The notes beneath the pieces are model-generated. The model saw only the letters and a list, made by a program, of their open reading frames with translations. It was not told where the DNA came from and made no database searches. A DNA stretch of 64,000 nucleotides. Origin: a bacterium (GTDB lineage Bacteria > Myxococcota_A > Bradymonadia > UBA7976 > UBA1532). Numbering within the stretch: position 1 is the first letter of the stretch; the number at the start of each line of letters is the position of its first letter. Location of the stretch: positions 70,413-134,412 of the forward strand of contig JAUHXC010000013.1 of the NCBI GenBank assembly GCA_030427205.1, read 5' to 3'. Below, one piece after another: positions 23,745 through 27,987 of the stretch. The translations under genes were made by a program, and so were the position numbers.

Positions 23745-25172
23745 TCACCGCAGGCCGAAGCGGGTCATCTTGCGCTTGAGGGTGTTGCGGTCGATGCCCA
23801 GGCGGCGGGCTGCGGGGGCGATGCGCCCGTCGCTGGCGGCCAGCGCGGCGACGATCGCGCGGTGCTCGACGGCCGCGACCTGCTCGGCGAGCGGGCGCGT
23901 CTCCGGCAGGGGCGTGTCGGGCGAGACGCCCTCGGCGGGACCCGGCTCGCGTCCGGTGCCCGGCGCGTTCGCCGGCGATCCGGCCGCCGCGCGCCGAATC
24001 TCGGGCGCCAGGTCTTCGAGGTCGACGACGTCGTCGCAGAAGACCGTCCAGCGGCGTACTTCGGCCAGCAGCTCGCGCACGTTGCCCGGCCAGTGCCAGC
24101 GGTGCAGCGCCGCCCACGCGCGCCGGGTCGGCCGCAGGCCCTCGCGGTCGCTCTGCCGCAGGCCGAGCCGCACGAGCGCCTCGAGGTCGCCGAGTCGATC
24201 GCGCAGGGCCGGCACCTCGAGGATCGCGCCGCGCAGTCGGTAGTAGAGGTCTTCGCGGAACGCGTCCGCGGCGACCATCGCCCGCAGGTCACGGTGGGTG
24301 GCCGCGATGATGCGCACATCGACCCGCACCGGGCCCTCGCCGCCCACCCGGCGGATGGTGCCCTCCTGCAGCGTGCGCAGCAGCCGGACCTGCACCGACA
24401 GCGGCATCTCGCCGACCTCGTCGAGAAACAGCGTGCCGCCGTCCGCCTGCTCGAACAGCCCGCGACGGCGGCCGATCGCGCCGGTGAACGCCCCCGGCTC
24501 GTGGCCGAAGAGCTCGCTCTGCAGGACACCCTCGGCGAACGCCCCGCAGTTCTCGGCGACGAAGGGCGCGTCGCGGCGGGGGCCCGCGGCGTGGATCGCC
24601 CGCGCGACGCGCTCTTTGCCGGTGCCCGTCTCGCCGAGAACCAGGACCGGCACATCACTCGCCGCCACCCGGGCCAGCCGTCGGGCCAGCCGCCGCATCG
24701 CCTCGGTATCGCCGACGAGATTGGCGGTGACGGTCGAGACCCGCGCCCGCAGGCGAACGACCTCTTCACGCAGCGCCCTGATCTCGGGGAAGCCGTCGAT
24801 GTCGAGCCGCACCTCGCGCACCGGCTCCGGGTGCAGATCGGGCACGAAGCGCGGGGGGATGACCTGCAGCATGCGGGCGTCGAGCAGACCGGCGCAGACC
24901 AGGATGACCCACAGCGTCTGGGCCTGCGGCGTGCCCGCCGAGAGCACGATATCCAGCGGGCGGTCGTCGGGCAGGGCCTCGATCACGGGGCCGAGCGCGG
25001 CGAAGAGCGCGGCGTGGTCGGACGGATCGGGCAGTTCGAGCGGCACCACCTCGGCCTCGATGCCGCTGTATCCCAGGTCGTGGGCCAGCGCGTGGGCGCC
25101 GGCCCGCGACCGGCGGGGCGTCAATACGATCGCCGCGTCGTAGGTCGTCGAGCCGGCGGTGATCAGGCGCAT
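23745..25172 (-). CDS. rtcR: sigma-54-dependent transcriptional regulator RtcR (CARF-like N-domain + AAA+ + HTH)
   Basis: Sigma-54 activator motifs are present (GETGTGKE, GAFTGA, the ESELFGHE region) plus a C-terminal HTH. The N-terminal domain resembles the RtcR CARF domain. The gene is divergent from rtcB. Confidence 0.85.
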   Translation of the reverse strand: MRLITAGSTTYDAAIVLTPRRSRAGAHALAHDLGYSGIEAEVVPLELPDPSDHAALFAALGPVIEALPDDRPLDIVLSAGTPQAQTLWVILVCAGLLDARMLQVIPPRFVPDLHPEPVREVRLDIDGFPEIRALREEVVRLRARVSTVTANLVGDTEAMRRLARRLARVAASDVPVLVLGETGTGKERVARAIHAAGPRRDAPFVAENCGAFAEGVLQSELFGHEPGAFTGAIGRRRGLFEQADGGTLFLDEVGEMPLSVQVRLLRTLQEGTIRRVGGEGPVRVDVRIIAATHRDLRAMVAADAFREDLYYRLRGAILEVPALRDRLGDLEALVRLGLRQSDREGLRPTRRAWAALHRWHWPGNVRELLAEVRRWTVFCDDVVDLEDLAPEIRRAAAGSPANAPGTGREPGPAEGVSPDTPLPETRPLAEQVAAVEHRAIVAALAASDGRIAPAARRLGIDRNTLKRKMTRFGLR

Positions 25173-25343
25173 GACCGGCCCCGGATCACCCGAGCGGGGG
25201 CGGCCGGCTCGATCGGACCACGTCAGCAGGCGTCGGCTCTCTGGTGCATCGTCCATCACTTGTGGTGAGTAGCGCACCGGTCTGGATGGTGCAAGATGCA
25301 TCAGCCCGTCTCGCGAGGCCCGTCGGCATGCGGCCTGCCGCCC

Positions 25344-25359
25344 TGGCACGGCGGTTGCT
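25344..25359 (+). promoter_or_regulatory. sigma-54 (-24/-12) promoter TGGCACGGCGGTTGCT upstream of rtcB
   Basis: Exact match to the TGGCAC-N5-TTGC consensus with correct GG/GC spacing, 45 nt upstream of the rtcB ATG (RBS TTGGAG). Confidence 0.8.
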
Positions 25360-25403
25360 GACAACCTTGACCGTCTGCGTTCGTTCCTCTTGGAGTCTTC
25401 GTC

Positions 25404-26747: not shown

Positions 26748-26749
26748 TC

Positions 26750-27370
26750 ATGCGCCGGCGCAACCCGATCGGCCGCGCGCTGGGCGAGCGGTCGCGCGAC
26801 CACGATCTTCAGCGGGCGACCGGTCCGCTGGTCCGCTTCCTGCGCAGTCGAGCCGGCCGCCGGTGGAGCGCCGTGCACAGCGAGCTCTGTCGCTCGCTGC
26901 CGCCGGGCAAGATCGGCGATCAGCTGCGCGAGCTGGTCTGTGACTTCGTCACGACGGACGTCGAGCGGCGTGCCGGCGTCCCGGGCGTCTTCGATCGTGG
27001 CGGCCGATGCCCGCTCTACAGCTGGCCGAGCCGTGGCTGGGGGGTGAAGTTCTACGCCGACCCGACGGACGGCACGCTGCGGGAGGCCCCGCCGCCGCCG
27101 CCCGAGCCCGCCGTGCCCGAACCCATCACCCGGATCGATCGCGGAGACGGGCTGCTCTACCTCAAAGACAATGGCATCTGGTACGCCGCCCAGCTGCGGC
27201 CCGTGCCCCGTGGGCGACCGCCGCTCGACCAGTGGCTGCGCGCGGCGGCCGATGCCAAGAGCGCCGATCGCCGACGCGCCCTGTACGGCCGCGGCCGACA
27301 CTACGCCGTCTGCAAACGCCAGCTCGATCGCCGGACGCTGCGGCGGGCCGGCTTGGAGAACGACCGATGA
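26750..27370 (+). CDS. hypothetical protein (206 aa) inserted between rtcB and prfH
   Basis: Translationally coupled on both sides: 2-nt gap after the rtcB stop, and an ATGA overlap with prfH. GC3-rich. No recognisable motif. Confidence 0.5.
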   Translation: MRRRNPIGRALGERSRDHDLQRATGPLVRFLRSRAGRRWSAVHSELCRSLPPGKIGDQLRELVCDFVTTDVERRAGVPGVFDRGGRCPLYSWPSRGWGVKFYADPTDGTLREAPPPPPEPAVPEPITRIDRGDGLLYLKDNGIWYAAQLRPVPRGRPPLDQWLRAAADAKSADRRRALYGRGRHYAVCKRQLDRRTLRRAGLENDR

Positions 27371-27987
27371 CCACCCTGATCCAGATCAGCGCCGGCACCG
27401 GCCCGGTGGAGGTCCGGCGCTTCGTCGCCCGGCTGGCCACGCCGCTGCGCATCGCGCTCGATGACGCCGGCTGCCCGATCGACGCCGAGATCCGCCACGG
27501 CGACGCGGACGCGCCGCGGTCGCTGGCGTTCGTGCTGGACGGCGTCGAGCCCGACGCGCCCGTCTTTCGACCGTGGCTCGGCACCCACTGTCGGATCGAT
27601 ACCAGCCGCGGGCGCGGCGCGCGCAAGCGATGGTATGTCGGGGTATCGGCGATTCGCTGGCCCAGCGGGACGCCGCCGACGCTCGACCCGGCCGATCTCG
27701 ACGTCACAGCGTGCCGCGCGGGCGGGCCGGGCGGGCAGCACGTCAACAAGAGCGAGACCGCCGTGCGCATCGTGCACCGGCCCACGGGCCTGCAGGTGCG
27801 CGCCGATCGCGAACGCAGTCGGGCGGCCAACCACCGCGCTGCCGAGCACCGCCTCGCGTCGCTGCTCGAGATGCGCGCGGTCGGGCGCGAGGCGCGGGCC
27901 CGGGATGCCGCATGGCGGGCACACCACCACCTCGAGCGTGGTCGCCCGGTCATGACCTGGCGCGGTGTGCCTTTGCAGCGGATCTGA
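27367..27987 (+). CDS. prfH: peptide chain release factor H-like protein (PrfH; GGQ peptidyl-tRNA hydrolase domain, lacks RF domain 1)
   Basis: GGQ motif in GGPGGQHVNKSETAVRIVHRPTGL. The ~206-aa size and the position next to rtcB match the RtcB2-PrfH ribosome-repair pair. Confidence 0.8.
   Translation: MTTLIQISAGTGPVEVRRFVARLATPLRIALDDAGCPIDAEIRHGDADAPRSLAFVLDGVEPDAPVFRPWLGTHCRIDTSRGRGARKRWYVGVSAIRWPSGTPPTLDPADLDVTACRAGGPGGQHVNKSETAVRIVHRPTGLQVRADRERSRAANHRAAEHRLASLLEMRAVGREARARDAAWRAHHHLERGRPVMTWRGVPLQRI

Follow-up and report, generated by a model that had tools for sequence, protein, structure and literature searches.

The subject of this report is a compact locus between positions 23,745 and 27,987 of a 64,000-nucleotide stretch of the bacterial contig JAUHXC010000013.1 (the whole stretch is hereafter called the window). 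It consists of a regulator gene and, divergent from it, three co-oriented genes: rtcB, prfH and, between them, a small gene without a name, referred to below as the middle gene. We think it likely, with a probability of roughly 0.6, that this locus works as an inducible operon for the rescue and repair of ribosomes, in which the middle protein acts as an accessory of RtcB. The operon would be of the kind that rescues ribosomes with toxin-cut 16S rRNA. In the mechanism that we propose, the divergently encoded CARF enhancer-binding protein probably binds three TGGTG-N7-CACCA sites, and its CARF domain would sense an RNA-damage signal, leading to activation of a sigma-54 promoter. The middle protein would be an RNA- or ribosome-binding accessory, rather than an enzyme, which helps RtcB to reach or to hold its broken substrate. 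In the clade of the window, the middle gene may be an old and dispensable component, present in a trimmed version.

To our knowledge, RtcB2–PrfH is the only system which reverses lethal damage of the ribosomal decoding centre and, as far as we know, it has so far been described as a constitutive-looking two-gene pair. The combination of a CARF sensor with sigma-54 wiring suggests that ribosome repair may be inducible by an RNA-damage signal. Furthermore, the locus and its relatives add a third, conserved partner protein for which there is neither a family model nor a solved fold. Characterisation of this protein family could reveal how bacterial RtcB enzymes reach their substrates, a question which is general to the RtcB paralogues, and thousands of 'hypothetical proteins' would gain a name and a function open to testing.

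Operon layout and the ligase–release factor pair

The rtcB gene (25,404–26,747, plus strand) encodes a predicted RNA 3′-phosphate/5′-OH ligase of 447 amino acids. Its stop codon is separated by a gap of 2 nt from the start of the middle gene (26,750–27,370, plus strand; 206 amino acids), which is preceded by a GGAGGG Shine-Dalgarno sequence. The stop of the middle gene and the start of prfH (27,367–27,987, plus strand), which encodes a release-factor-H homologue of 206 amino acids, overlap as ATGA (a −4-nt junction). No sigma-70-like promoter was found between 25,200 and 28,200 and no plus-strand intrinsic terminator inside the operon, and the gene downstream of prfH is convergent. We infer that all three genes are transcribed together, with translational coupling at both junctions. 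In this arrangement prfH does not directly follow the RtcB2-type gene, as one gene stands between them; it follows directly in the sister loci L004, L006, L008 and L077.

A preliminary description of this DNA, made from the letters alone, had listed a regulator, a promoter, rtcB, a reading frame of 206 amino acids and prfH; all of these elements were found, at the coordinates given here. Its gene identities and operon logic proved right, and the promoter element is conserved in orthologous loci. It had also reported that rtcA is missing, and a tblastn search with E. coli RtcA as the query indeed found no homologue in the whole window.

The product of rtcB matches the Pfam family RtcB (1.5e-69). 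The motifs GGDAGCG, GGGNHF, HSGSRGLG and HGAGR, which comprise the metal ligands and the histidine nucleophile, align with the RtcB of P. horikoshii, and identity to E. coli RtcB1 is 26%. Among the NCBIfam models it scores highest with the two PrfH-linked ones, PRK09588 (298 bits, cut-off 407) and TIGR03073 release_rtcB (254 bits, cut-off 271.8); both scores fall under the cut-offs because an insertion of about 40 amino acids splits the alignment in two. On this basis the gene is probably of the PrfH-linked RtcB2 type.

PrfH matches the Pfam family RF-1 (1.1e-20) and carries the GGQ signature as GGPGGQHVNK. Against the NCBIfam model TIGR03072 release_prfH (IPR017509) it reaches 130 bits (cut-off 166.65), with model positions 2–197 of 200 aligned. 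Alignments with the two solved PrfH structures, 9mor (2.9e-23, residues 4–202) and E. coli 7sa4 (2.4e-19, residues 4–201), cover its full length, and the GGQ is kept in them, so that the gene was rightly described as a GGQ-containing release-factor-H homologue. RF1 and RF2 match it in the GGQ domain only; RF domain 1 is absent. A metagenome scan with PrfH was uninformative, as the GGQ pattern drew in almost nothing but generic release factors.

Residues in contact with the ribosome were assessed by reading the PDB alignment against the contacts of the E. coli cryo-EM structure (PMC9304027), from A9–P12 to R189. The A-x-G-P loop, R52, S53, R83, R88, K89, H184 and R189 are kept, and four further contacts (H85, H86, N90 and R181) are changed. 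A C-terminal tail is a feature of the Capnocytophaga PrfH subfamily (PMC12829566); like E. coli PrfH, the protein of the window lacks it.

The E. coli RtcB2–PrfH operon (PMC9304027, PMC9223846, PMC13166195) is one of the closest known systems, with an RtcB2-type ligase upstream of, and coupled to, a GGQ release factor without domain 1, and with most ribosome-recognition residues of PrfH conserved. In contrast to this two-gene operon, the window has a third coupled gene in between as well as a divergent CARF/sigma-54 activator with its putative promoter, and its proteins are divergent in sequence.

Regulator and promoter region

The regulator gene (23,745–25,256, minus strand) encodes a putative enhancer-binding protein of 503 amino acids which combines a CARF domain, a sigma-54 AAA+ domain and a Fis-type helix-turn-helix. 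Pfam reports Sigma54_activat (2.3e-67), AAA_lid_14 and HTH_8 (1.2e-11), and the translation carries the GAFTGA motif and the Walker A motif GETGTGKE. A fold search identified the N-terminal domain as a divergent CARF fold; a PDB sequence search with the same domain gave noise only. These results bear out the earlier view of a divergent CARF-like sigma-54 activator. The name rtcR given to it then holds for the CARF/sigma-54 architecture, and RtcR (PF06956) is matched by 20 of 27 close homologues of the regulator; as a family assignment, the name fits less well. In PADLOC the protein scores 440 bits with RtcR_PspF2 and 185 bits with RtcR, and with the NCBIfam RtcR model NF038308 it reaches 317 bits, so that the equivalog level (cut-off 650) is not attained. 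The regulator fits better with the RtcR_PspF2 subfamily than with canonical RtcR, as judged by these profile scores.

The regulator and rtcB are separated by a divergent intergenic region of 147 bp. Within it lies the putative −24/−12 promoter TGGCACGGCGGTTGC (25,344–25,358, plus strand), at a distance of 46 nt from the ATG of rtcB. As criterion for sigma-54 promoters we used GG and GC elements 10 nt apart (TGGCAC-N5-TTGC). This element is the sole exact match in the window, where 0.12 would be expected, and an alignment of six orthologous regulator–rtcB intergenic regions shows an invariant GGCACG-N4-(T)TGC core. The exact promoter noted in the preliminary description is thereby confirmed as an element of the DNA.

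Furthermore, the region contains three tandem palindromes of the form TGGTG-N7-CAYC(A), which are candidate upstream activator sites for the regulator. The pattern TGGTG-N7-CAYC has three matches in the window, all within 61 bp (25,242–25,302), of which the first overlaps the start codon of the regulator gene. Palindrome clusters are located 41–116 nt upstream of the putative sigma-54 promoter. Between the regulator and rtcB, matching clusters are also present in L002, L004, L008/L009, L010 and the genome of Sorangium cellulosum So ce56 (L077); the triplet architecture is shared by So ce56 and further orthologous intergenic regions. Palindromes and promoter together are arranged as one would expect where an activator acts on a sigma-54 promoter from upstream sites, and the regulator would bind and activate here.

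A comparable regulatory arrangement is found in the RtcR–sigma54–rtcBA system of E. coli and Salmonella. In this system (PMC7790460, PMC9650030), a CARF, AAA+ and helix-turn-helix activator is likewise divergent from a sigma-54 promoter which precedes an RtcB ligase operon. The regulator of the window is 31% identical to E. coli RtcR over the full length. The two systems differ in that the window has no rtcA, its ligase is of the RtcB2 type rather than RtcB1, and its regulator belongs with RtcR_PspF2.

Regulation of this type had been thought unrecognised for RtcB2–PrfH pairs. One part of this claim stands, as RtcR or sigma-54 control is not mentioned in the RtcB2–PrfH literature that we considered (including PMC9304027, PMC9223846 and PMC13166195), although an earlier mention in comparative-genomics surveys is possible. 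The other part does not, since the arrangement is far from rare. A regulator–rtcB–prfH order without a middle gene is present in L004, L006, L008/L009 and the complete genome of So ce56, so that CARF/sigma-54-controlled rtcB–prfH is the rule in this lineage, which would be Myxococcota/Polyangia to judge by the organisms named as sources of the homologues.

The middle gene and its family

The middle open reading frame (ORF) is a real gene. Its GC content by codon position (0.76/0.58/0.87) has the same pattern as that of its neighbours, in a genome of 72% GC, and differs from that of the antisense ORF. Orthologues with 67% and 54% identity occupy the same position in two other contigs and share the same N-terminus. 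The ratio of nonsynonymous to synonymous substitutions (dN/dS, Nei-Gojobori) is 0.34–0.44 for the middle gene, compared with 0.18–0.30 for prfH and 0.15–0.24 for rtcB; the gene is under purifying selection, which is looser than that on its neighbours. The tightly coupled ORF of 206 amino acids reported at the outset is thus well founded, given its junctions, its coding-type GC and its dN/dS.

The middle protein is very basic (isoelectric point 10.96). An AlphaFold2 model based on an alignment of 60 sequences is confident (pLDDT 90.4, pTM 0.67); in it, four helices at the N-terminus are followed by a part rich in beta structure and then by a short alpha/beta segment. The structural check that had been suggested for this protein yielded a good model, yet no fold match to it was found in the PDB.

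A word-indexed search retrieved three relatives only. By contrast, when 1.84 billion cluster representatives were searched with a profile, 3,442 of them matched at E ≤ 1e-3, and 1,442 still did so at E ≤ 1e-10. The gene is hence no one-off, as it had appeared to be, but a member of an unnamed RtcB-associated family which is linked to RtcB in many phyla. No model for this family was found in Pfam, NCBIfam, PHROGs or PADLOC. A typical member has about 240 amino acids, with the N-terminal motif MRxDMxKVIVERPR and a basic linker of roughly 40 amino acids. The helical region contains L-x-P-L-x-R-F-L-R-S-x-V-G-R-P-W-D-x-V-Y-S-E-I, two strands carry FYVDP-x-T-G-x-L and G-x-W-Y-E-V, and the C-terminal part KRQL...R..GL. 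Near-invariant residues are H58 and H62 (an HxxxH pair in helix 4, complete in 55 of the 60 sequences aligned), E45 and D160. These motifs are conserved in the family, and the earlier statement that the ORF has no recognisable motifs must be withdrawn.

The protein of the window departs from this pattern in part. H58 is replaced by Q and H62 by L, which abolishes the HxxxH pair; the basic linker is absent and the N-terminal motif is degenerate. It keeps P26, L27, R29, F30, L31, G36, R37, W39, E45, Y102, P105, G108 and L110 as well as G142, W144, D160, K189, Q191 and L192. Judged by the family alignment, the middle gene of the window clade is a derived, trimmed copy in which nearly all other conserved positions are kept.

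A genome scan, comprising one genome per species and using a 4-sequence family alignment as the query, resulted in 33 loci which span Acidobacteriota, Verrucomicrobiota, Alphaproteobacteria, Myxococcota and other groups. A co-oriented RtcB is present in the flanks of 15 of these 33 and directly adjacent, with a gap of at most 381 bp, in 11. RtcB is also the sole neighbour family which is widely common: it accounts for 11 of 117 ORFs within two genes of the family gene, and no other large cluster emerged when all neighbours were compared with one another. Genes for Ro60/TROVE, Band-7 and TPR proteins are near family genes in a few loci each. The partner ligases are of the RtcB2 type or related to the NF052663 'RtcB_rel_intein2' exteins, and none is an RtcB1. 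RtcB2-type ligases also pair with the family in the absence of PrfH, since in a Methylacidimicrobium metagenome-assembled genome (MAG; L017, 5,919–8,343) a bona fide RtcB2/release_rtcB-type ligase (504 bits, above the cut-off) precedes a family gene and a small SEC-C-motif protein, and there is no prfH.

On these grounds a wider proposal can be put forward, although tentatively and at somewhat less than even odds: the family may be an unrecognised, structurally novel and widespread partner of non-canonical RtcB (RtcB2 and 'RtcB_rel_intein2' extein types). It would be an RNA- or ribosome-binding subunit defining a new class of two- or three-gene RNA-repair modules, and the rtcB–middle gene–prfH operon of Polyangia with its CARF/sigma-54 control would be one elaboration of this class.

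Several single members of the family deserve mention. In L025 (1,917–5,301) the family gene adjoins an intein-containing RtcB of 824 amino acids. In L013 and L035, Ro60/TROVE (+vWA) genes are located a few genes away from the family gene, an echo of the rsr–Y RNA–rtcBA operons. P0147 (585 amino acids) contains two tandem middle-gene domains in one polypeptide, and P0193 and P0217 have long C-terminal extensions without a Pfam match. A plasmid search for the family gave one unannotated match from Novosphingobium, without RtcB context. The Myxococcus phage Mx1, a 169-kb myxophage, encodes a full-length homologue (OR576727.2, WNM70250.1; L074, 5,944–6,708; 29% identity, E 7e-12), which is situated among hypothetical genes near a macro-domain protein, with no RtcB annotated within 6 kb. 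A candidate fusion of middle gene and RtcB in Nannocystis (L019) was rejected, as the upstream part of that ORF and the middle gene are not read in the same frame.

The survey of prfH neighbourhoods that the preliminary description had called for shows that the middle gene recurs. The order rtcB–middle gene–prfH, with overlapping junctions, occurs in six loci, among them L001, L002, L044, L045 and the degraded L010; the order middle gene–rtcB–prfH is found in two loci, one from Nannocystis radixulma and one from a Pseudomonadota MAG. The middle genes of the six rtcB–middle gene–prfH loci are monophyletic and branch congruently with the PrfH tree (neighbour-joining, without bootstrap values). 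In the neighbour-joining trees, the loci without a middle gene (L004, L006 and L008) are nested among loci which have it; beyond the window clade, the nearest PrfH is that of L004 (63% identity). The nesting suggests an ancestral three-gene operon with repeated loss of the middle gene rather than a recent insertion, and the word 'inserted', used earlier for this gene, does not fit the trees well.

In the degraded locus (L010, 7,425–9,694) the order regulator–rtcB–middle gene–prfH is present, and rtcB is frameshifted and has lost about 150 codons by deletion; the C-terminus of RtcB and the middle-gene domain are joined in one reading frame (P0150). The locus would be either decaying or the product of an assembly error. 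P0150 was rejected as a natural fusion of RtcB and middle protein and is not counted as Rosetta-stone evidence because of the frameshifted and partly deleted rtcB in its source locus.

Function of the middle protein, rival readings and genomic surroundings

The role of an RNA- or ribosome-binding RtcB accessory is attributed to the middle protein because of its basicity, its co-orientation and coupling with RtcB and the persistence of selection after the loss of the HxxxH pair, which is the sole plausible catalytic dyad. A number of observations weigh against the proposed function of the locus. First, the middle gene is not required for the core reaction, since L004, L006, L008 and So ce56 lack it. 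In addition, about half of the genomic loci of the family have no RtcB within 8 kb. The remaining points concern the substrate of the operon and the chemistry of the middle protein, and each is best considered together with the alternative to which it leads.

All three of RtcB, PrfH and the regulator remain below the curated NCBIfam equivalog cut-offs. They thus represent a divergent branch, whose substrate specificity could differ from that of the E. coli pair. PrfH, moreover, differs from its E. coli counterpart at four contact residues (H85R, H86G, N90R and R181W), including H86, which contacts the 3′-phosphate. The operon might accordingly be directed at a lesion other than ColE3-type 16S cleavage, such as nicks in tRNA anticodons or cuts at other rRNA sites, with the specificities of PrfH and RtcB shifted; canonical RtcR responds to tRNA fragments, according to PMC7790460. 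We regard such a shift as unlikely, as most residues of the A1493-phosphate pocket and of the C1914 pocket are retained in PrfH and the best models for RtcB are the PrfH-linked ones.

Chemistry is at issue in the near-invariant H58/H62, E45 and D160 of the family, which could mark a catalytic or metal site and would then argue for an enzyme. Such an enzyme might perform metal-dependent healing or trimming of RNA ends and replace RtcA in preparing them for RtcB. The absence of rtcA from locus and window and the position of family genes in RNA-repair neighbourhoods agree with this, and the selection which persists in the window clade without the HxxxH pair is among the grounds for preferring an accessory. 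All in all, an enzymatic function of the family appears improbable.

It is quite unlikely that the middle protein is a winged-helix-like DNA- or RNA-binding regulator which tunes the expression of the adjacent rtcB and takes no part in repair: the scores for it are at noise level, Pfam detects no helix-turn-helix or winged-helix family in the middle family, in the loci examined the gene always runs in the direction of rtcB, in many cases with translational coupling, and the clade already has a dedicated CARF regulator. Least probable is that the middle gene is a decaying passenger here, its function lost and its presence due to being wedged between two coupled genes; the loss of the HxxxH pair and the linker, a dN/dS about twice that of rtcB and prfH, repeated loss in sister lineages and the visibly broken L010 speak for it, but three lineages, as little as 54% identical, still have intact ORFs of 204–206 amino acids, with dN/dS well under 1 (0.34–0.44) and coding-type GC at third codon positions, most other family-conserved residues are kept and the coupled start/stop junctions are preserved.

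An accessory of RtcB is not without parallel. Archease is an RtcB activator in archaea and eukaryotes. Archease and the middle protein are both small, tied to RtcB by genomic position or by function, and not ligases; no similarity of sequence or fold was detected between them, and the analogy is a functional speculation.

Accessory genes around RFH–RtcB pairs have been noted before by Burroughs & Aravind (2019, PMC6514570). Their survey names a TPR protein, a Pol-beta nucleotidyltransferase (NTase), a ZnR protein whose C-terminal helix is charged, and another charged protein 'lacking any detectable homologs', and it proposes that positively charged uncharacterised proteins in these neighbourhoods contact rRNA. 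For this reason a third gene as such is not unprecedented, and the earlier impression that none had been described does not hold in this general form; what remains of it is that the middle family has no obvious match among the genes named there. Like these RFR accessory proteins, the middle protein is uncharacterised, positively charged and encoded in RFH–RtcB neighbourhoods. The published text descriptions set the two apart: a Cys-rich ZnR is absent from the middle family, whose homologues run into the thousands and are mostly linked to RtcB without PrfH. Because of this, and as no TPR or NTase gene lies alongside, the family is not obviously any of the four.

The remaining observations concern the surroundings of the operon. 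Scanned from end to end for RNA genes, the window yielded no Rfam family at the gathering threshold and no tRNA or tmRNA, hence no Y-RNA-like partner. Beside the regulator gene (20,158–23,619, minus strand) a protein of 1,153 amino acids is encoded, whose translation, read by eye, appears Ser/Thr kinase-like at the N-terminus, followed by a long AAA/TPR-like region. The genes downstream of prfH (28,027–30,858; MOSC-like, acyltransferase and ThiF/MoeB-rhodanese) are syntenic with contig L002 (4,429–7,188), which places the operon in a stable chromosomal context rather than in an obvious mobile island. Lastly, a P450-like ORF with an FxxGxRxCxG motif is located at 30,732–32,231.

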